Source of the DNA: Phycisphaerales bacterium
GTDB lineage: Bacteria > Planctomycetota > Phycisphaerae > SM23-33
Length of the DNA stretch: 64,000 nt
Assembly: GCA_018644725.1 (NCBI GenBank)
Contig: JABGPZ010000054.1
Span: 4,502 to 68,501 of the forward strand
Direction of reading: 5' to 3'
Below are positions 9,932-56,266 of this stretch, piece by piece; position 1 is the first letter of the stretch, and each line of letters opens with the position of its first letter. The translations under genes were made by a program, and so were the position numbers. The notes under the pieces were generated by a model, which ran no database searches, was not told where the DNA came from, and worked only from the letters and a program-made list of their open reading frames with translations.

Positions 9932-10126
9932 TCAGTCACGCACGCAAAAGGTAATCAACAGTGCCACACCTGCCCAAAGCAGACCAACTCCCGCAACCGT
10001 TGTTTGCATACTACCGACTGAAATGTTATAAAATCCGCCAGCAATGAACATCGGACTCAAAAGTGGGGGGATAAGATTCCTCAATCTGAACTGAACTTTG
10101 CATTTGAGTTCTGGTGTATTTTCCAT
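9932..10126 (-). CDS. hypothetical small membrane protein (64 aa, two predicted TM helices)
   Basis: AAGGAG RBS 6 nt upstream of the ATG at 10126. Hydrophobic segments LIPPLLSPMFIAGGFY and VAGVGLLWAGVALLITF. AT-rich relative to neighbours. The N-terminal part of the track ORF runs through a terminator hairpin, so it was trimmed. Confidence 0.35.
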   Translation of the reverse strand: MENTPELKCKVQFRLRNLIPPLLSPMFIAGGFYNISVGSMQTTVAGVGLLWAGVALLITFCVRD

Positions 10127-10226
10127 TTCATTCTCCTTGTGTCGTATCTTAGGCAGATTCTTTTTCCTTCTTCCCCAGCTGCGCATCGTCGTATTAATAG
10201 TATCAAGTTGACGCGAAAGGTCAAAC

Positions 10227-10266
10227 AAAAAAACCGTCGGGCGTTTTGACACGCTCGACGGTTTTT
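10227..10266. terminator. bidirectional intrinsic terminator downstream of carA (repeat copy B)
   Basis: AAAAAAACCGTCGGGCG-TTTTGAC-ACGCTCGACGGTTTTT. Direct repeat of 9872-9914. Confidence 0.7.
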
Positions 10267-37130: not shown

Positions 37131-37322
37131 CTATTTTTGTCCGAAACCCGCCTCGATGGCCCGGGGACGCGGAGGCATACAAAATCGTGGTTTTTTTCAT
37201 TCCACGGCCTCCAAATTGCCGATAAAAAGGAGTACCCTGCGAGCGATGATGGATTGTAAATCATGTCGCCGGCGGGTATCATAGGCAACGAAAACGAACC
37301 CTAACCCCTCCGGGAGTGAACC

Positions 37323-37919
37323 ATGACGATGCGACTCATCTTAATGGCTATGGTATTGGTGCCACTGGTCGGCTGCCAACAACAGACCGACGGCACATGG
37401 AAACCGATCGAGCCGAAATGGAAGAACCCGAAGTGGGACTGGTGGAACACCTCCAGCGACACCCCCGCCCCCGCGTCAGATTCCAGCGCCACGACCTCCG
37501 ACCAACCCTATTCCGTCGCAAAAGATGCCAAGGTCTATTCCGGCACGGAACTGGACACCTATCGCAAAACGCTCTGGCCGCATGTCCACAAACTCCAGGA
37601 CCTCCGCAAGGCCTACCCTGTCCGCGCGGACCGTGACAACTACATCCACCAACTCAAGCGCAACCTGCCGCGAATGTACAGCCACCTCGAAGCGACGGCC
37701 CCCGACACCAAGGCCCTGCAATTTACCGTATGGAGTACCTATCTGATCTGGGACTTCATGCCCATCGACGACTACTTCATGGCCCGCGCACGCTGGGAAA
37801 CGATCACGGAACTCGAAAACATCATCGTCCCGAAGATCCAAACCCGCCAGGACATGGCCAAGTTTGTCTTGGACTATCTCGACGGCCGAGGCAAACTCGC
37901 GCCCAACACCTCCAACTAG
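37323..37919 (+). CDS. hypothetical lipoprotein
   Basis: Lipobox signal MTMRLILMAMVLVPLVGC. No family recognised. Confidence 0.6.
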   Translation: MTMRLILMAMVLVPLVGCQQQTDGTWKPIEPKWKNPKWDWWNTSSDTPAPASDSSATTSDQPYSVAKDAKVYSGTELDTYRKTLWPHVHKLQDLRKAYPVRADRDNYIHQLKRNLPRMYSHLEATAPDTKALQFTVWSTYLIWDFMPIDDYFMARARWETITELENIIVPKIQTRQDMAKFVLDYLDGRGKLAPNTSN

Positions 37920-44415: not shown

Positions 44416-45873
44416 ATGACTACGCAACGCAGAAACTTCCTGAAGACGGCCGCGCTAGGCGCTGGCATTGTTGCTTCGGGCGCCATGGCCACTGGCGGCT
44501 GTGACAAAAAATCTGAAATCAAGGCGCAAGTCGCCAAAAACCCTGGCCCGCAGAAGCGCAACATGTGCGGCTTCCGCGCCGAACCCATTCCGACCGTCCG
44601 CGTTGGGATCGTCGGCCTCGGGATGCGCGGCGGCGGTGCTGTCGGCCGTCTGAGCAAGATCCCCGGTTGCAAGATCGTCGCCCTGTGCGACCTGCGCCCG
44701 GAGAAGGTCAAAAATGCAGTGGCGCGTCTCAACAAAGACGCCAAATCCCCCCCCGCCCCCAAAAGCAGCGCTCTCTATTCTGGCGAAGAAGGCTGGAAGG
44801 CGATGTGCGAGCGTGACGACCTGGACCTGATCTACATCTGCACGCCGTGGCGCTGGCACACCCCGATGGCTGTCTATGCGATGAAGAACGGCAAGCACGC
44901 CGCGACCGAAGTCCCCGCCGCGACGACCATCGACGAAGCCTGGGAACTCGTGAACACCTCCGAGGCCACCGGCAAGCACTGCGTGATCCTCGAAAACTGC
45001 TGCTACGACTTCTTCGAAATGATGACCCTGAACATGGCTCGCCAGGGCGCGTTCGGCGACGTGATGTACGGCGAAGGTGCCTACATCCACCAGCTCGTGG
45101 GCCTGAACTTCTCGCAGAAGGGCTATCAGGGCATGTGGCGCCTGAACCAGAACTTCACCAAAGACGGTAACCTCTACCCGACCCACGGGTTCGGGCCGGT
45201 CGCGCAGATCATGAACATCAACCGTGGCGACCGTCTGGACTTTATCTCCAGCCAATCGACCGCAGACGTGACGATGTTCGAAGAAGCCAAAAAGCGCGCC
45301 GCCAAGGACGCGTTCTACAAGCCGTACGCCAAGAACCAGTACCGTGGCCAGATGAACAACACCATGGTCAAGACCAAAAACGGCAAGAGCATCCTCATTC
45401 AGCACGACGTGAGCTCCCCGCGCCCCTACAGCCGGATTCACCTCGTCAGCGGCACCAAGGGCATCGCCCGCAAATGGCCGTCCCAGAAGATCGCACTCTC
45501 GGGCCACAAGTTCGAAACCCAAGATGACGCGACCCGCGGCGGCACGAAGATCGTCAGCGCCCACCGCTGGCTGGACCCGAATCAAATGAAGCAGATCAAG
45601 GCCCAGTTCGAACACCCGCTCACCAAGAAGATCGGCAAGTGGGCTCGCTCGGTCGGTGGCCACGGCGGCATGGACACGATCATGGACTACCGCCTGATCC
45701 ACTGCCTGCGCAACGGCCAACCCGTGGACATGGACTGCTACGATGCGGCTGCATGGTCCTGCATCATGCCCCTGAGCGAATGGTCCGTCGCCAACCGCTC
45801 TAACTCCATTGACGTACCGGACTTCACCCGTGGCGCATGGAGGAAGAACATCCCCCTCGCAATCGTTCAATAA
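44416..45873 (+). CDS. TAT-exported Gfo/Idh/MocA oxidoreductase (GH109-like), copy 1
   Basis: Twin-arginine signal MTTQRRNFLKTAALGAG. Rossmann GIVGLGMRGG. Gfo/Idh/MocA N- and C-domains. Paralogous to the next two genes. Confidence 0.85.
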   Translation: MTTQRRNFLKTAALGAGIVASGAMATGGCDKKSEIKAQVAKNPGPQKRNMCGFRAEPIPTVRVGIVGLGMRGGGAVGRLSKIPGCKIVALCDLRPEKVKNAVARLNKDAKSPPAPKSSALYSGEEGWKAMCERDDLDLIYICTPWRWHTPMAVYAMKNGKHAATEVPAATTIDEAWELVNTSEATGKHCVILENCCYDFFEMMTLNMARQGAFGDVMYGEGAYIHQLVGLNFSQKGYQGMWRLNQNFTKDGNLYPTHGFGPVAQIMNINRGDRLDFISSQSTADVTMFEEAKKRAAKDAFYKPYAKNQYRGQMNNTMVKTKNGKSILIQHDVSSPRPYSRIHLVSGTKGIARKWPSQKIALSGHKFETQDDATRGGTKIVSAHRWLDPNQMKQIKAQFEHPLTKKIGKWARSVGGHGGMDTIMDYRLIHCLRNGQPVDMDCYDAAAWSCIMPLSEWSVANRSNSIDVPDFTRGAWRKNIPLAIVQ

Positions 45874-45893
45874 CGATTCGAATCACGCAATTC

Positions 45894-45929
45894 AAACGGA
45901 CGGCTCACAGCGAGTCGTCCGTTTTTTTT
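45894..45929 (+). terminator. intrinsic terminator after GH109-like copy 1
   Basis: AAACGGACGGCTC-ACAGC-GAGTCGTCCGTTTTTTTT. Confidence 0.8.
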
Positions 45930-45982
45930 GTGAATACGGAAAGTGGCACGGTCGACGCGGACCATTCATTTCCAATAATACT

Positions 45983-46011
45983 TTGACAACCGAGGAATAT
46001 CTGGCTATTAT
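45983..46011 (+). promoter_or_regulatory. sigma70-like promoter (TTGACA-N17-TATTAT) for GH109-like copy 2
   Basis: Hexamers at 45983-45988 and 46006-46011. Confidence 0.55.
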
Positions 46012-46063
46012 TTTCGTTCAACTAATAAATCACCAACGGATGGCTATAGCCAAGGAGACATTG

Positions 46064-47449
46064 ATGACTAACGAACGCAGAAACTTCCTGAAGACCGCCG
46101 CACTGGGTGCTGGTATTATCGCGGCTGGCTCGATTGCCAAGGCCGAATGCGCCAAGGCCGCAAAGCTTCCTGAAATTCTTGACCAGGTCAACAAGGATCA
46201 GGGCAAGCAGGCCCAGAACATGTGCGGGTTCGCCGCGCCGCCGATCAAGAATGTCCGCATCGCCGTCATTGGCCTCGGCAACCGCGGACCCAATGCCGTC
46301 AACCGCATGGCCAAACTCAAAGGGGTCACCGTCGTCGCCCTGTGCGACCTGATCCGCAACCGGGCCGAGAAATGCCAACAAACTCTCATCAATCTCAAGC
46401 AACCCAAAGCAAAGATCTTCTCCGGCGAAAATGGCTGGAAGGACTTGTGCAAAATGGAAGACCTCGATCTGGTCTACATCGTCACCCCTTGGCGTCTCCA
46501 CACGCCGATGGCTGTGTATGCGATGGAATGCGGCAAGCACGCGGCTGTGGATGTTCCCGCCGCGACGACCGTCGAGGAATGCTGGCAGCTCGTCAACACG
46601 TCCGAGCGCACCAAGAAGCACTGCATGCAGCTGGAAAACTGCTGCTATGACAACTTCGAAATGATGACATTGAACATGACCCGCAAAGGCGTGTTCGGCG
46701 AGATCGTCCACGCCGAAGCAGCCTACATCCACGATCTGATCAGCCTGAACACCACCGGCCACTATCAAGGCAGGTGGCGCCTGCAGCAGAATCTCAAACG
46801 CAACGGCAACCTCTACCCGACCCACGGTCTGGGCCCGGTCAGCCAGTGCATGAACATCAACCGCGGCGACCAATATTCCTATATGACCTCAATGAGTTCC
46901 AAAGACGTCAACCTCGGTCCGGCCGTCAAAGCCCGCCTCAAGAACACCCCCTACGCCAAATCCGAGACCTTCCGTGGCAACATGAATACCTCGATCATCA
47001 AGACGGCCAACGGCAATACGATCATGGTCCAGCACGACGTCAATTCCACGCGTCCCTACAGCCGGATTCACCTGCTCAGCGGCTCCAAGGCCATGTGCCG
47101 CAAATATCCCATTGAAATGGTTGCCTTCACCCACAGGGGTGGAGGAAAACGCGGTAAAGAGCTTATCCCGCTGAAGCGGAAATACGAACACCCGCTGTAC
47201 AAACGCATGGGAGCGGTTGCCAAGTCCCTCGGCGGCCACGGCGGCATGGATGGAATCATGGATGCCCGCCTGATCGAATGCCTCAATAATGGCGCGCCGC
47301 TTGACCAGGACGTCTACGATGCAGCTGCATGGAGCGTCATTGCCCCCCTGAGCGAATGGTCCGTCGCCAACCGCTCTAACTCCATTGACGTACCGGACTT
47401 CACCCGTGGCGCATGGAAGAAAAACACACCCCTCGCCATCGTCGAGTAA
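46064..47449 (+). CDS. TAT-exported Gfo/Idh/MocA oxidoreductase (GH109-like), copy 2
   Basis: AAGGAGA RBS. MTNERRNFLKTAALGAG TAT signal. VIGLGNRG. Collinear with copies 1 and 3. The track ORF start at 45809 was rejected. Confidence 0.85.
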   Translation: MTNERRNFLKTAALGAGIIAAGSIAKAECAKAAKLPEILDQVNKDQGKQAQNMCGFAAPPIKNVRIAVIGLGNRGPNAVNRMAKLKGVTVVALCDLIRNRAEKCQQTLINLKQPKAKIFSGENGWKDLCKMEDLDLVYIVTPWRLHTPMAVYAMECGKHAAVDVPAATTVEECWQLVNTSERTKKHCMQLENCCYDNFEMMTLNMTRKGVFGEIVHAEAAYIHDLISLNTTGHYQGRWRLQQNLKRNGNLYPTHGLGPVSQCMNINRGDQYSYMTSMSSKDVNLGPAVKARLKNTPYAKSETFRGNMNTSIIKTANGNTIMVQHDVNSTRPYSRIHLLSGSKAMCRKYPIEMVAFTHRGGGKRGKELIPLKRKYEHPLYKRMGAVAKSLGGHGGMDGIMDARLIECLNNGAPLDQDVYDAAAWSVIAPLSEWSVANRSNSIDVPDFTRGAWKKNTPLAIVE

Positions 47450-47470
47450 CGATCCGAATCGCAACAATTC

Positions 47471-47506
47471 AAACGGGCGGCTCATCGCGAGTCGTCCGTT
47501 TTTTTT
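47471..47506 (+). terminator. intrinsic terminator after GH109-like copy 2
   Basis: AAACGGGCGGCTC-ATCGC-GAGTCGTCCGTTTTTTTT. Near-identical to the copy 1 and copy 3 terminators. Confidence 0.8.
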
Positions 47507-47641
47507 GCGCATAGCAAGACGATTTCCTTCGCCCCAGAGACTCACTTCCAAAAATAAACTTTGACTGGCAGCGAAGAAATCACTACCCTTTCCGTTACAC
47601 TATTACCCCATCTATGGATGGTTATACCCAAGGAGACATTG

Positions 47642-49027
47642 ATGACCAACGAACGTAGAACATTTCTGAAGACCGCCGCACTCGGTGCTGGCATTGTGGT
47701 TGCGGGATCGATTGCCCGCGCCGAAGCTGCCCAAGCGGCCAAACTTCCCGAGATTCTTGAGCAGGTCAATAAGGACTCTGGCACGCAAGCTCAAAACATG
47801 TGCGGGTTCGCTGCGCCGCCGATCAAACAGGTTCGCGTCGGCATCATTGGTCTCGGCCATCGCGGCCGGCGTGCGGTGACACGCATGGCCAAACTCAAAG
47901 GAGCGACCATCGTCGCCCTGTGCGACCTGATTCCCGCCCGCGCCGAACAGTATAAAAAGAGTGTCGTCCAACTCAAACAACCCGAGCCGAAGACCTTCTC
48001 CGGCGAAGATGGCTGGAAGGCCTTGTGCGAGATGGAGGACATCGACCTGATCTACATCGCAACGCCCTGGCGGCACCACACGCCCATGGCCGTCTATGCG
48101 ATGGAATGTGGCAAGCACGCAGCCGTGGAAGTCCCCGCCGCGACGACCATCGAAGAGTGCTGGCAACTCGTGAACACCTCCGAGCGCACCAAAAAGCACT
48201 GCATGCAGCTGGAAAACTGCTGCTATGACAGCTTCGAAATGATGACATTGAACATGGCCCGTCAGGGTGCGTTTGGTGAACTCTGCCACGCCGAGGCGGC
48301 CTATATCCACGAGTTGGTCACGAAAAACTTTGATAAGAAGTCCTATCAGGGCCTCTGGCGTCTGAACCAGAACATGGCCCGCAACGGCAATCTCTATCCC
48401 ACCCACGGTCTGGGCCCGGTCAGCCAATGCATGAACATCAACCGCGGCGACCAGTACGGGTACCTCACCTCAATGAGTTCCATCGACGTCAACATGCGCC
48501 AAGCCGGGGCGCGCCTCTATGGCAAAGACAGCAAATATGGAAAGCACGAGACCTACCGCGGAAACATGAATACCACGATGATCAAGACCACCAACGGCAA
48601 AACGATCATGGTCCAGCACGACGTGTCCAGCCCGCGTCCCTACAGCCGGATTCACCTGCTCAGCGGCTCGAAGGGGATGTGCCGCAAATATCCCAACGAG
48701 ATGGTCGCCCTCGGCCACAAGGCGCTGGAAGGCAGAGCGCTTGTCAATTTGAGAAAGAAATATGCCCATCCGCTCTCCAAACGCATGAACCCGATCGCCA
48801 AAACCCTCGGGGGCCACGGCGGCATGGACGGGATCATGGATGCCCGACTGATCGAATGCCTCCAGCGAGGCATTCCGCTCGATCAGGACGTCTACGATGC
48901 AGCCGCATGGAGCGCAGTTGGCCCGCTGAGCGAATGGTCGGTCGCCAACGAGAGCAACTCCATCCGCGTGCCAGACTTCACCCGCGGCGCATGGAAGAAA
49001 AACACACCCCTCGCCATCGTAAAATAA
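47642..49027 (+). CDS. TAT-exported Gfo/Idh/MocA oxidoreductase (GH109-like), copy 3
   Basis: AAGGAGA RBS. MTNERRTFLKTAALGAG TAT signal. IIGLGHRG. Very similar to copy 2. Confidence 0.85.
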   Translation: MTNERRTFLKTAALGAGIVVAGSIARAEAAQAAKLPEILEQVNKDSGTQAQNMCGFAAPPIKQVRVGIIGLGHRGRRAVTRMAKLKGATIVALCDLIPARAEQYKKSVVQLKQPEPKTFSGEDGWKALCEMEDIDLIYIATPWRHHTPMAVYAMECGKHAAVEVPAATTIEECWQLVNTSERTKKHCMQLENCCYDSFEMMTLNMARQGAFGELCHAEAAYIHELVTKNFDKKSYQGLWRLNQNMARNGNLYPTHGLGPVSQCMNINRGDQYGYLTSMSSIDVNMRQAGARLYGKDSKYGKHETYRGNMNTTMIKTTNGKTIMVQHDVSSPRPYSRIHLLSGSKGMCRKYPNEMVALGHKALEGRALVNLRKKYAHPLSKRMNPIAKTLGGHGGMDGIMDARLIECLQRGIPLDQDVYDAAAWSAVGPLSEWSVANESNSIRVPDFTRGAWKKNTPLAIVK

Positions 49028-52552: not shown

Positions 52553-54370
52553 ATGAAACGACTCTGTCTATGCCTCGTTCTTCTACTCGCCGCGATTGCT
52601 CTGGGAGACACTGTATTCCTCGCGGATGGGAGCAAACTCGTGGGGACCGTGACCAAAGACGGGACGACCGTCCACGTTCAAACCCCCGATGGCAAACGCG
52701 TCACGCTGAAGTCTTCGGATGTCCTCTATGTCAGTACGGGCGTTAAAAAACCGACCGGCCCCGATCCGCTCAAGCCCTCCCTGAAACCGAAGGCCACGCC
52801 AACGACGCCCGGCCCGGCCAAGCCCAATCCAGCCAGCCCAAGATCAGCGTCAACCACGAAGTATCACTCGACAGATAAGACCACCGTCATCAACCGCCCC
52901 CAAAGCCGCGTGTTTCTTGCGATGCGCCTGCTCGCTGCCAACAAAGCCGGTCCAGAATCCAAAACCGCCGTCACCGTCCGCCACTATCGCTCCCTGGTCC
53001 ATGACCGCAAGCGGAACATTGCAGGACGCTGGTACGAGCCGAAAGACTATATCGATCGCCGCGAAAAAGCGCTCGCCATCGCGCGTGACGCTGCGGCCGA
53101 TCTGAAAAAAGGCGCCAAAAAGCTCGAACCGTTCAAACTCAAAACCACGACCACCCGCAATCGCACCACAGGCCGGCTCGAACGCGGGGTCAGTACGAGC
53201 GAACGCAACCGCGCCCTGCGCTACAATCAAGAACTCCAGGAAATCAGAGTCGCACAGCTCGAAGGCCGCAAAAAAATGAAGCAGGCCGGACTCATGTTCC
53301 CCGAATATGAAGTGCGCGTATTCATGCTCGGCTGCGGCGCCTATCAAAGCGGTGCCTATCCCGACGCCCTGATGCACTTTTCCAAACTCGCCAAGGAACG
53401 CCCGAACATGGTCGTCTATCAACAGGCCTATGCGATGGCCTGCATAAAACGCAAATCCTATGACCGCGGCATCAAGGCGCTCATCGCGACGCTCGAACTC
53501 GACCCGACCAACGGCGAATTGCGCGAGCTGATCGCCAGCACGCTCAAACAACTTCCCGGCAAAGAAATTCACTCCGACACCGTCAAGCTCGCCAAGGCAG
53601 CCCTCAAGAAGACCAAACCCTTCAGCAAAACCCGCAGCGGCTATTCCTCGCTCGCGAGCAGCTCCTCCGGCGACGAGTCGATCCGCTGGCTGTTCCCGGC
53701 CAAGCCAGTGACCAACGCGCAATACCAACTCCCCAATCACCCCTACGACCGCTTCAACGACTATCAGGGCGTCGCCGTCCCGATCGGCCCACACACGCTG
53801 ATGGTAGACCGCAACGTCGTTTCCGATGCGGCACAGATCATCATCCACATCGATGCGAACACCAGCGTCGTCGGCAAGGCCAAAACCTCCTATGCCCGCG
53901 GGCTGCCGGTGACGACCGTCGAAGTGCGTTCGCACGTCTTCAAGCCTGTAGAGCTCGTTGGGCTCGAAGAGCGCGATGCCGCCAAAAATACCAGCGTGTT
54001 CTCGACAAACTATCTCCCAGAAATGAACAAGACGAACATCAACCTCATCCGCCAACAGCAGATTGATTTCAAAACCATACTCGACGGCAAGACCAAGCTC
54101 TTCATGCCCGGCGAATCGGGCGGGCCGATCATGACCGCCGATGGCAAATTGCTGGGCTTCCTCTCTGGCTGGACCGACTGCCTCGAAGACGATCCCGAGT
54201 TCATCCTCGCCGACCACAAAGACCTCGAGCGCACCATAAAAAGTGCCAACCGCGACCCGAGCAAATACTCTTCTGCCCCCGTAGTCGATACCTCCAAGCT
54301 CCCGCGCGCCAAGGGCAACACCTTCCTGATCTATTCGCTCGGCGGCGAAAAATTCGAACTGAAAAAATAG
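52553..54370 (+). CDS. secreted TPR-containing protein with C-terminal trypsin-like (GxSGGP) domain
   Basis: AAAGGAGA RBS before the ATG at 52553 and a signal peptide (LCLCLVLLLAAIALG). Pro-rich linker and TPR-like helices. C-terminal PGESGGPIM motif resembling the serine-protease GDSGGP. The first 463 codons of the track ORF (51164-) are antisense to aroA and were rejected. Confidence 0.65.
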   Translation: MKRLCLCLVLLLAAIALGDTVFLADGSKLVGTVTKDGTTVHVQTPDGKRVTLKSSDVLYVSTGVKKPTGPDPLKPSLKPKATPTTPGPAKPNPASPRSASTTKYHSTDKTTVINRPQSRVFLAMRLLAANKAGPESKTAVTVRHYRSLVHDRKRNIAGRWYEPKDYIDRREKALAIARDAAADLKKGAKKLEPFKLKTTTTRNRTTGRLERGVSTSERNRALRYNQELQEIRVAQLEGRKKMKQAGLMFPEYEVRVFMLGCGAYQSGAYPDALMHFSKLAKERPNMVVYQQAYAMACIKRKSYDRGIKALIATLELDPTNGELRELIASTLKQLPGKEIHSDTVKLAKAALKKTKPFSKTRSGYSSLASSSSGDESIRWLFPAKPVTNAQYQLPNHPYDRFNDYQGVAVPIGPHTLMVDRNVVSDAAQIIIHIDANTSVVGKAKTSYARGLPVTTVEVRSHVFKPVELVGLEERDAAKNTSVFSTNYLPEMNKTNINLIRQQQIDFKTILDGKTKLFMPGESGGPIMTADGKLLGFLSGWTDCLEDDPEFILADHKDLERTIKSANRDPSKYSSAPVVDTSKLPRAKGNTFLIYSLGGEKFELKK

Positions 54371-54378
54371 ATAACCCA

Positions 54379-54431
54379 TGTTGGGTGCCATGGCCTGCAC
54401 TGCGGAGCTTGCGACGCAGGACAGCCATGAT
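54379..54431 (+). repeat. left inverted repeat of the low-GC cassette
   Basis: TGTTGGGTGCCATGGCCTGCAC...GGACAGCCATGAT. Pairs with 54987-55037 (outer block 21/22, inner block 13/13). Confidence 0.8.
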
Positions 54432-54449
54432 AGAATCAAAAGGAGAGAT

Positions 54450-54944
54450 ATGTCCAATACAATTACATTGCTTAGTGAACACCGCGAGATTGAACAATCC
54501 GTTTGTGATGCAAAAGTAGTAGCAGTTCGTTGGGATTTGGTCCCGTGGGGCCTTGTCATAGATATTGATGTCCCCCTGTCCGAAGCCGAAAACGCCCCCT
54601 TACACCGTGCATGGATCGTTTTTGATGGTATGAATGAAATCAATTGGAATTTCAATAATTCCAGACTCCCTGATGGAATCTGGCTTACGAGCAACGCCCT
54701 CGTTAAGCAACAAACAAATGGGGGTTTGAAGTTCACAATTGCGACACTTCTCCCCAAATTCTCCGAAAACGAGCCACTGCCTGATACTGGTGAAGATTTC
54801 GGGCTATCCATAACTGCAAAAAATATTCTTGTCTTTCGAAGTGACAAATCCATCTCGCCTGGAAAATACGGCCTCACTCGCCAACAACGCCTCTCACTGG
54901 CTGATGACACTTGTCTTCTTGATACTGTCACACGCTGTTTATAG
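54450..54944 (+). CDS. hypothetical protein (164 aa), passenger ORF of an inverted-repeat-flanked low-GC cassette
   Basis: AAGGAGA RBS 5 nt before the ATG at 54450. AT-rich codon usage unlike neighbours. No family recognised. Confidence 0.45.
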   Translation: MSNTITLLSEHREIEQSVCDAKVVAVRWDLVPWGLVIDIDVPLSEAENAPLHRAWIVFDGMNEINWNFNNSRLPDGIWLTSNALVKQQTNGGLKFTIATLLPKFSENEPLPDTGEDFGLSITAKNILVFRSDKSISPGKYGLTRQQRLSLADDTCLLDTVTRCL

Positions 54945-54986
54945 TTGGGGAAAGAATAAGTTCGCAAAATTATAGGCAGAAAATCA

Positions 54987-55037
54987 ATCATGGCTGTCCG
55001 CGACGAGTACGTCACGTGCAGGCCATGGCACCCAGCA
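54987..55037 (-). repeat. right inverted repeat of the low-GC cassette
   Basis: The reverse complement reads TGCTGGGTGCCATGGCCTGCAC...GGACAGCCATGAT. Confidence 0.8.
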
Positions 55038-55072
55038 TTCAAATAGTAACTTAGTGCCTATCCTACTATGCG

Positions 55073-56266
55073 CTATCGCACCGTAAGGAAATATTCCATG
55101 AGGCGGAAGCCGCGGTCAATGTGAAGGTCGCCGCGAGCATTGGCGACTGCTTCGCTGAAACCACCCGTGACGGTATGGGTCATTCGTTCGCCAGCGATCA
55201 CCACGGGAACGTCGTCGCGGAGATAGTTGCGCTCGTCGCACCCTGCGGCAATGCCGGGCGTGACCATCATGCGCCAAGGCTGGCCCATGCGGCGGACCGA
55301 GTCCAGCAACGGGCCGATGACGTGGGCGTCGATCTGTTCAATCGTGCGTACTTTTTCGGTAGGATTGCCCGCCAGCGATGCCAGCGAGGGCCCTTCGAGG
55401 TGGACCGTCACTAAATCGTGCGTGTCCAGAGCCTCAGCAGCGGCCTTGCCGACCGCGGGATAGTCCACGTCCGCCAATTCCAGTGCATACGCGGGCGCAA
55501 CCGGCTGGATCCAGCCCAGCAACGACGTCAGGCCGCGCATGTAATTACTCGATGAAATTCCGAACGCTTTGAGATTGTAGCGCCCCTCAAATTTGCTGAG
55601 CGTCGGCCGTTTCCCCTGGCCCCAGATCCACGCGTCGGTAACGGTGTTCTCGCCAAGGTCTTCACGGACATGGTTGATCTCGCTCTGGGCAAGAAATTCG
55701 CGAACACGTTCCATCAGCGCCAGCAGCACGTCGGCCGAGCCGCTGCGCGGGAGGTGCGGGCGATAGCGTTTGGAGAGGAATGTCTGCGGTGCGGTCGTGG
55801 TCACCGCCCACTCGCCGGGGAACAGCACAAGGTTGCGATATTGCTGGGAATGGATCAGCTTCACACCGGCCTGTTTGAGCGCGGCACTGAGCTGTTCGAG
55901 CAGCGCGGTGGCCTCGGGCGTGCTGAGCGATCCGGCGGTAATGTCCTCGAGGACCTCGTCGATGATCGTGACAAAATCGAAGCGGAAGACCGTCTTGTCG
56001 CGCGGCAGATTCACGCCGGCACCGATGGCTTCGAGCGGCGCAATGCCGGTAAAGTAGCGACACGGATCGTATCCCAACAGCGACATCATCGCCGTTGACG
56101 CGCGCGGGGCAAGCGCGGGCGACTGCGTACGGACCACTCCGGCGCGGCCAAGTTCGACCAGCGCATCCATGTTCGGCGTCTTGGCGGCTTCGAGGGGCGT
56201 CTTGCCCTTGAGGTCGGCGAGAGGCTTCTCCGAGGCGCCCTCAGGAATCACGATCACATATTTCAT
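55073..56266 (-). CDS. cofactor-independent phosphoglycerate mutase (ApgM)-family protein; possible homoserine kinase analogue
   Basis: MKYVIVIPEGASEKPLADLKGKTPLEAAKTPNMDAL...LLGYDP matches the ApgM/metalloenzyme superfamily N-terminus. Lies 1 nt downstream of hom on the same strand. Confidence 0.8.
   Translation of the reverse strand: MKYVIVIPEGASEKPLADLKGKTPLEAAKTPNMDALVELGRAGVVRTQSPALAPRASTAMMSLLGYDPCRYFTGIAPLEAIGAGVNLPRDKTVFRFDFVTIIDEVLEDITAGSLSTPEATALLEQLSAALKQAGVKLIHSQQYRNLVLFPGEWAVTTTAPQTFLSKRYRPHLPRSGSADVLLALMERVREFLAQSEINHVREDLGENTVTDAWIWGQGKRPTLSKFEGRYNLKAFGISSSNYMRGLTSLLGWIQPVAPAYALELADVDYPAVGKAAAEALDTHDLVTVHLEGPSLASLAGNPTEKVRTIEQIDAHVIGPLLDSVRRMGQPWRMMVTPGIAAGCDERNYLRDDVPVVIAGERMTHTVTGGFSEAVANARGDLHIDRGFRLMEYFLTVR

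Follow-up and report, generated by a model that had tools for sequence, protein, structure and literature searches.

The stretch of DNA analysed here (64,000 nt from a Phycisphaerales bacterium, a member of the Planctomycetes; hereafter the window, taken at its full length of 64 kb) carries at positions 54364-55050 a short AT-rich segment, in which one small open reading frame (ORF) lies between two inverted hairpin repeats, the whole being wedged between two convergent housekeeping genes. The insert proper spans 54376-55040 (665 bp). We describe this segment, the protein family to which its single gene belongs and the repeats at its ends, and consider whether the three may have arrived together, as one mobile cassette. 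The features of the locus, in order along the window, are as follows.

52553-54370, + strand: flanking resident gene, encoding a 605-amino acid (aa) secreted TPR protein; a 53%-identical orthologue is the convergent neighbour of apgM in a related metagenomic contig, L112
54365-54375, no strand: left copy of the direct repeat, AAATAGATAAC, including the TAG stop of the 52553-54370 gene; a candidate target-site duplication
54378-54434, + strand: left hairpin arm, GC content 0.60; 71.3 bits, E 1e-14, with the covariance model described below
54409-54436, + strand: promoter-like site (TTGCGA, 16 nt, TG-n-TAGAAT) inside the left arm and facing the ORF, by consensus match only
54440-54446, + strand: ribosome-binding site (RBS), AAGGAGA
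54450-54944, + strand: passenger gene, encoding an acidic protein of 164 aa (isoelectric point, pI, 4.86), an orphan member of a probable polymorphic-toxin immunity family
54984-55038, - strand: right hairpin arm, with head and basal stem as in the left arm; 72.2 bits, E 8e-15, with the same model
55041-55050, no strand: right copy of the direct repeat, AAATAGTAAC
55073-56266, - strand: flanking resident gene apgM, encoding a cofactor-independent phosphoglycerate mutase (PF10143)

An earlier note on this DNA had pointed out, by eye, the inverted repeats, a direct repeat AAATAG(A)TAAC outside them whose left copy takes in the TAG stop, the AT-richness of the segment and the 164-aa ORF with its AAGGAGA RBS, and all of these observations are upheld. 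The outer inverted repeat (54378-54400 with 55016-55038) is complementary at 22/23 positions and the inner one (54419-54434 with 54984-54999) at 15/16, two matches being reached in 0/100 shuffles for the outer and the inner block alike, and when the whole window is compared with itself the cassette arms are the sole inverted pair of at least 16 nt within 5 kb. The direct repeat extends over 10/11 nt with one indel, each copy lying 2-3 nt outside the arms; an equally good repeat in 20-nt flanks was found in 45/20000 shuffles and in 66/20000 random window pairs (p ~0.002-0.003, i.e., a chance of ~0.3%). The GC content in 300-nt windows is 0.455 inside the segment versus ~0.58-0.64 outside, falling from 0.60 to 0.44 in the interior, and the GC content at third codon positions (GC3) of the ORF is 0.45 versus 0.7-0.8 in nearly all neighbour genes. 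As to the start of the gene, both the public gene call (P0001, 184 aa) and the longest ORF (188 aa) begin within the left arm (54378-54449), and since alignments of homologues as well as the RBS support the 164-aa version, we take 54450 as the true start.

The neighbourhood is housekeeping throughout the 10 kb on either side (TruB, shikimate kinase, EPSP synthase, apgM, homoserine dehydrogenase, YggS, lipoate ligase), and neither the segment nor these flanks encode a transposase, an integrase or a recombinase, which extends the earlier note's statement that no transposase or integrase is present; its recognition of the convergent neighbour as apgM-like is likewise supported by the PF10143 match. 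The source, an uncultured Planctomycete, has been poorly sampled, the closest ApgM among 185,579 species genomes being only ~40% identical to its own, and the locus itself is found in six contigs from different metagenomes, at 100% identity and in one orientation. The most informative comparison is with an ENA contig (L112) encoding an apgM orthologue 85% identical to the one in the window, convergent with the TPR orthologue, with the two stop codons 88 nt apart. The spacer between them contains no ORF and no arms; it does contain a 60-nt tandem duplication of the 3' end of apgM, and without this duplication it measures 28 nt. When the element is deleted from the window together with one direct-repeat copy (positions 54376-55050), a spacer of 27 nt remains, the predicted empty-site junction of which would read ...GAACTGAAAAAATAG(A)TAACTTAGTGCC... 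The empty-site check proposed in the earlier note thus yields, in L112, an orthologous site free of ORF and arms, and no exact empty site with a single AAATAGTAAC was found; in more distant Planctomycetota loci the TPR-apgM adjacency is undetectable. Because the GC and GC3 values are foreign, because the orthologous site of L112 contains neither ORF nor arms and because the deletion restores the length of the spacer, the segment is very probably a compositionally foreign insertion, as far as comparison of sequences can tell.

Several further observations concern the same region. The duplication in the related contig (L112:2231-2318) repeats the last ~32 nt of apgM and its stop, and may be the footprint of another insertion or excision at this place, which would suggest a hot spot. 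A low-coverage ENA contig (L113) is 99.9% identical to window positions 56809-55555; at 55555, part-way through apgM, the match ends abruptly and is followed by 154 nt of unrelated sequence with a low GC content (L113:1257-1410). Either this contig is an assembly chimera or a subpopulation has an insertion here. Elsewhere in the window, three tandem paralogues of a GFO_IDH_MocA / glycosyl-hydrolase-109-like oxidoreductase occupy 44416-49027, and two ORFs of 106 aa, at 9932-10252 (- strand) and 37316-37636 (+ strand), have low GC3 (0.45 and 0.49, respectively) and belong to no Pfam family; they are not flanked by inverted repeats, and may be spurious or other foreign genes.

The earlier note could place the protein encoded by the passenger gene in no family. 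It has no match in Pfam, NCBIfam or PADLOC, and a word-index homology search returned only the protein itself and one 41%-identical protein (P0002, from the JGI contig L021). An exhaustive profile search, however, overturns that verdict, revealing a family of 122 clusters, mostly of 155-175 aa (~165 aa) and acidic (median pI 4.9, with 95% of members below 6); none of 61 members searched against Pfam has a match there either. A scan of species genomes identified ten family loci, in Myxococcota (Sorangium, Anaeromyxobacter, Polyangiaceae), Acidobacteriota, Planctomycetota, and Verrucomicrobiota. In four loci (L103, L104, L108, L109) the family member follows, by a few bases and on the same strand, a gene for an RHS-repeat protein of >1,280 aa, in another (L106) it directly follows a gene for a pretoxin-HINT (PT-HINT) protein, and the same layout of a toxin gene and then a homologue is seen in two metagenome contigs (L136, L137), the gap between the two genes being only a few nt in all seven loci. 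The seven upstream proteins all end in a common tip of 91 aa, which is 58-80% identical between species (L103:3674-3943; L104:3721-3990; L106:3386-3658; L108/L109:3693-3965; L136:2646-2918), and the rest of their scaffolds differs. The consensus of the tip is RFIGQPDGxLVDTxxTPxGSYxQPGGGRTDILQxEDHGAGxSHTHDPK...PPKGR, with the core RTDILQxEDHGxGxSHTHD; of the four tips examined, three have a basic pI (8.4-9.7) and one a pI of 6.3, and the tip has no match in Pfam or in the Protein Data Bank (PDB). Among the proteins with this tip, in their last ~95 aa, are the RHS proteins of Sorangium So ce26 and Anaeromyxobacter oryzisoli, and the conserved motif E-D-H...H-T-H-D suggests that the tip is a metal-dependent enzyme, possibly a nuclease.

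One variable C-terminal tip carried on different scaffolds, and always followed by one family of small proteins, is the hallmark of a polymorphic toxin paired with an immunity protein. As seven homologues directly follow proteins that share one conserved 91-aa tip on RHS or PT-HINT scaffolds, the family is most probably one of polymorphic-toxin immunity proteins, an activity that gene linkage points to. The acidic pI (4.86 in the window, 4.9 as the family median) fits an immunity protein, for which neutralization of a toxin is predicted. While the homologues occupy the position of an immunity gene, the copy in the window is an orphan: the tip is encoded nowhere in the 64 kb, and the 605-aa TPR protein upstream is unrelated to it. 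This is not unusual for the family, since about half of the sampled members are orphans or are found in runs of small genes (L102, L105, L107, L110, L111, L130/131, L133-135, L021), in one case with RHS fragments nearby (L111). As to the fold, AlphaFold predicts a compact beta-rich domain with confidence when provided with a 61-sequence alignment (pLDDT 94.9; only 44, a poor model, from a 2-sequence alignment), so that the structure prediction suggested by the earlier note does yield a confident domain; Foldseek finds no relative of this fold in the PDB (best TM ~0.2), and the family profile finds nothing meaningful among PDB sequences. One apparent member, P0093, with 18 matches to the family, was rejected, as it is a giant Big_9/cadherin adhesin in which the match is a repeat artefact.

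The surroundings of other family members present some features of their own. The contig that encodes P0002 has tandem units of ~60 nt, in direct orientation, in three intergenic regions (L021:1142-1246, 1521-1630, and 2190-2275), with the unit GTAGAGCCCCCGGCxCCGAACTGGTAGCCTCTC ... CTGCTGCCGCAGCAGT, unrelated in sequence to the arms in the window; the layout resembles that of a cassette array whose intergenic sequences are repeated, and recalls rAID-1 or integron-like arrays. In another contig (L130:4486-9365), a family member is found among eight consecutive small genes on one strand (products of 146-272 aa, one of them DUF4261), with no toxin gene, which looks like an island of orphan immunity genes. 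Serine peptidases recur near family members, possibly by chance: the 605-aa protein of the window (52553-54370) appears by eye to have a trypsin-like GESGGP end, Pfam reporting only TPR, a neighbour of P0002 (L021:62-1027) has a GDSGA motif, and a Peptidase_S46 gene (L130:2281-4422) is located two genes upstream of a member. The toxin tip may or may not equal the recently named Tox-REHH DNase family (10.64898/2026.09.22.753552).

The ends of the segment are more than plain terminal repeats. The earlier note had treated them as a simple inverted pair, and an inverted pair they are, but each arm also folds on itself, into a hairpin of common design, with a 5' head TGGGTGCC, a basal stem CATGGC/GCCATG, a bulged C, a TG/CA pair, and a CA/GA internal loop, topped by an apical stem that varies (CTGCG/CGCAG in the left arm, GTGACG/CGTCGC in the right). 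The asymmetric features, i.e., the head TGGGTGCC and the bulged C, place the two hairpins on opposite strands. A gapped arm pattern, with the apex left free to vary, was run on species genomes, viral contigs, and JGI/ENA metagenome contigs; it produced 0 matches in the species-genome contigs and 0 in the viral contigs, and in the metagenome contigs it recovered the window locus again (L114) and one unrelated contig (L115). The latter contains a good copy, with the apex GCAC/GTGC, 13 nt past the stop of an acyltransferase-like gene, and a second, diverged copy in the same orientation, 95 nt away from start to start (~42 nt of spacer) and just upstream of a short-chain dehydrogenase/reductase (SDR) gene. 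The search for arms elsewhere thus succeeded in part, with two further copies, in tandem, direct and without cargo, and none with another passenger. The 19-nt head and stem are kept in the copies on this contig, and their apical stems differ yet still pair; in the diverged copy, an A-U pair of the basal stem is replaced by G-C on both sides, which amounts to one compensatory change. The arms are therefore members of a rare structured-repeat family. Each of the four known copies is preceded by a stop codon or by another copy and reads in the same sense as the gene before it, the distance from the stop being 8 nt for the TPR gene, 34 nt for apgM, and 13 nt on L115; a U-rich tract comes after only one of the four.

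A covariance model (R1) built from the four copies, i.e., the two window arms and the two on L115, detected, with filters off, no further copy in the 64-kb window, and it detected none in the related loci and family loci, 356 kb in total. The arms have no Rfam match (nothing at E <= 5), and blastn of the arm or of the element against plasmids and phages gave no match. Of other candidates, a scan of the species-genome contigs with a 19-mer of the arm gave 16 matches, none of which has the inner block, and these are chance or coding matches; a weak R1 match at 1509-1552 was dismissed, as it spans a coding junction; and the possibility that the arms encode a conserved leader peptide is rejected, as the four copies have different reading frames and lengths. 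The taxonomy of L115, approached via its SDR gene (~45% identity to mixed phyla), is uninformative. We also note that the motif ATAAC is found 6 nt upstream of the TGGGTGCC head in the left arm of the window (54371-54381) and 2 nt upstream in the diverged copy (L115:969-980), the right arm having GTTAC in the equivalent region; this could be a target or cleavage preference, or a coincidence.

What, then, may have brought these parts together? In our view the balance tips toward a non-autonomous cassette, of the mobile-insertion-cassette or the cargo-carrying-REPIN type, with an orphan immunity gene as its cargo, inserted as one unit, a mobility that we infer from one locus. This was among the candidates of the earlier note, and with a foreign insertion, an empty site in L112 and no transposase it is still the best reading, its movement being putative. 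According to this proposal, a unit consisting of a hairpin, an RBS, the ORF, and a second hairpin would have entered the ~27-nt spacer in a single insertion, duplicating ~10 nt of the target, and would have been moved in trans by an enzyme encoded elsewhere that recognizes the hairpin ends. The cargo would be a single promoter-poor gene with its own RBS, for which the left arm may supply a promoter. The orphan immunity protein would neutralize the specific C-terminal toxin domain that other bacteria deliver on RHS or PT-HINT scaffolds, so that a carrier without a toxin of its own would gain protection from attackers possessing that toxin. Insertion as a unit is suggested by the presence in the window of exactly two hairpin copies, one on either side of its one foreign gene, and by the direct repeat (p ~0.003). 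A single event is also the most economical, since the alternative needs three arrivals in one tiny spacer when the ~50 other intergenic regions received none. The host-like GC content of the arms (0.60), combined with the foreign composition of the ORF, suggests a resident vehicle that has captured a foreign gene; a hairpin doublet that was there first, with the gene landing inside it later, may be an equally possible history. It is also conceivable, if on balance rather unlikely, that the hairpin is the end-recognition site of an undescribed trans-acting Planctomycete system (a single-strand enzyme of the HUH type, or another) that moves gene-capturing inverted doublets, which would then be cargo-carrying REPINs delivering single promoter-less defence genes into tiny spacers between essential genes.

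A number of observations weigh against a mobile cassette. Only one cassette of this kind was found, and no second cargo, parent insertion sequence (IS) or transposase with matching ends was detected in species-genome, viral, and metagenome contigs, plasmids or phages, the host's own genome being covered by the 64-kb window only. The six contigs of the locus are identical and in the same orientation, so that no polymorphism is visible; the direct repeat is imperfect, by one indel, and is set 2-3 nt off the arms; and the copies on L115 are direct and cargo-free, unlike a pair of transposon ends. No inverted repeats surround the homologues of the gene elsewhere, from which it follows that the repeats belong to the vehicle or to the site, not to the gene. 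L112 is fairly distant, and a loss in its lineage may account for the difference at this site. The immunity activity, too, is a prediction from gene linkage.

The most serious competitor, which we nevertheless consider somewhat unlikely, is that the hairpins are ordinary dispersed 3'-end elements (similar to repetitive extragenic palindromic, REP, sequences, or terminators, or mRNA stabilizers), one following the TPR gene and one following apgM on the opposite strand, which would create the appearance of an inverted repeat, with the gene having arrived separately, for example by illegitimate recombination, and the direct repeat being due to chance. In its favour, every copy comes after a stop codon or another copy, in the sense of the upstream gene; the copies on L115 are solo, tandem, and cargo-free; the arms are host-like (GC 0.60 versus 0.45 in the ORF); and the compensatory change supports a local hairpin. 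The same explanation, however, demands three separate events in one ~27-nt spacer since the split from the lineage of L112, which has none of them, in a window of which the other ~50 intergenic regions are without any copy; it leaves the direct repeat (p ~0.003) unexplained, and with a U-rich tract after one copy only, the hairpins would make poor intrinsic terminators. A role at the level of RNA, which the earlier note had offered as the alternative to a cassette, seems improbable by comparison. Here, the 5' and 3' ends of the ORF transcript would pair (a stem of 23 + 16 bp), protecting or processing the mRNA in the manner of an RNase III stem, and the 680-nt RNA does fold with its ends paired (minimum free energy -227 kcal/mol versus -182 for shuffled sequences, z = -5.9). 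Such pairing is thus energetically possible, but the z-score merely restates the inverted repeat, each arm folds without the other, the copies on L115 have no distant partner, the sole compensatory change is within one copy and not between distant arms, and no Rfam family matches; moreover, foreign composition, direct repeat, and empty site would go unexplained. End pairing could still occur as a secondary effect of the architecture.

Two explanations that invoke site-specific recombination fare worse. An inverton, in which an invertase would flip the ORF between the two convergent transcription units via the inverted repeats, is suggested by repeats of 23 + 16 nt around a ~550-bp segment into which both convergent genes could read, and is very improbable given that the six independent contigs, from different samples, are 100% identical and all in the same orientation, that no recombinase is encoded within 10 kb on either side, and that the foreign GC, the empty site, and the solo tandem copies are not explained by it. 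Least credible, and largely refuted by geometry, is a gene cassette of the integron type, in which the hairpins would serve as folded recombination sites similar to attC. It would accommodate a compact, promoter-poor ORF beside imperfect palindromes that have a bulged base, a variable apex, and a structure better conserved than the sequence, and the one distant homologue, on L021, does belong to an array whose intergenic regions contain repeated units. Integron-like repeats between the genes are known from arrays of orphan immunity genes (rAID-1; 10.1101/471110). Such a cassette is expected to have one attC site, at its 3' end, whereas two inverted copies are present here, the hairpin ends lack the RYYYAAC...GTTRRRY core pair, no integrase is encoded within 10 kb on either side, and Rfam returns nothing at E <= 5.

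Returning to the non-autonomous cassette, the earlier note recognized no described element in the segment, and in this it was mistaken, as two described kinds come close, mobile insertion cassettes (mic; PMC2600179; PMC3913671) and REPINs (PMC3337134). The former are bounded by inverted repeats, lack a transposase, and duplicate their target (PMC2600179; PMC3913671). In examples such as MIC231 of Bacillus cereus, mic-qnrS2, and mic-qnrD, a single passenger replaces the transposase between imperfect inverted repeats (PMC2600179; PMC3913671), no transposase is present inside or nearby, a short target duplication lies outside the repeats, and a putative internal promoter is present, and the element in the window has these descriptive features, its target duplication being a candidate one. 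At their ends, however, mic elements have terminal repeats of the IS type, ~20-24 bp long and matching those of a known IS family, while the ends in the window are self-folding hairpins of ~55 nt with a variable apex, for which no parent IS is known and copies of which are also found solo, in tandem; the candidate duplication is imperfect and separated from the arms by 2-3 nt, and the cargo is a putative immunity gene, not a resistance gene. A REPIN, in turn, consists of two hairpin repeats in inverted orientation and is mobilized in trans by a RAYT enzyme, and the likeness consists in an imperfect palindrome with conserved flanking bases, an inverted pair as the putative mobile unit, the occurrence of singlets, and the non-autonomous nature (PMC3337134). 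The spacers of REPINs measure tens to ~110 bp and are non-coding and hairpin-forming, whereas the spacer in the window measures 549 nt and codes for a protein, and REPINs number tens to hundreds per genome, compared to two copies in the 64-kb window and one other locus in large collections. No RAYT is seen here, and the ORF is not one, as it has no Pfam match and no PDB fold match and is linked to toxins. RAYT proteins are Y1 HUH transposases, and their genes are typically flanked by REP repeats. Another group of elements with hairpin ends, the IS200/IS605-derived PATE, have these hairpins on the same strand, no terminal inverted repeats, and no target duplication. A PATE is ruled out in this case, as the TGGGTGCC head and the bulged C place the window hairpins on opposite strands.

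With respect to the cargo, the closest parallel is presented by the AID and rAID-1 orphan immunity genes, which have no cognate toxin, are of skewed GC content, have been acquired horizontally, and are thought to be protective (10.1101/471110; PMC12247911). The gene in the window is likewise an orphan of skewed GC content, absent from a relative. The AID and rAID-1 genes, however, form multi-gene arrays, on mobile elements or next to a XerD-family recombinase, in Bacteroidales, while the window has a single gene, between Planctomycete housekeeping genes, with no recombinase and with inverted hairpin ends. Compared to RHS/PT-HINT toxin-immunity pairs, homologues of the ORF are placed in the same way, right after a variable C-terminal tip, with the same tip found on different scaffolds; they differ in that the tip and the immunity family match no Pfam, NCBIfam or PADLOC model and no PDB sequence or fold, and in that the partner toxin is missing from the window.

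In conclusion, orphan immunity genes are known already, and so are transposase-less cassettes bounded by inverted repeats; new is their combination, i.e., a single putative orphan immunity gene between housekeeping genes, with structured hairpin repeats, and this in a Planctomycete. To our knowledge, orphan immunity genes have so far been described mainly in large arrays on mobile elements. If the segment is indeed a mobile cassette, it would represent a minimal route to protection from a competitor's toxin, with one gene on a transposase-less vehicle inserted between housekeeping genes, and it would extend the elements built of hairpin repeats, of the REP/REPIN kind, to Planctomycetes and to the carriage of cargo. 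Whatever the mechanism of mobility, a previously unannotated, putative toxin-immunity pair is now defined, consisting of the 91-aa tip of RHS/PT-HINT proteins and an acidic family of ~165 aa (122 clusters), the latter with a confidently predicted fold that matches none in the PDB, and this pair is open to direct testing.

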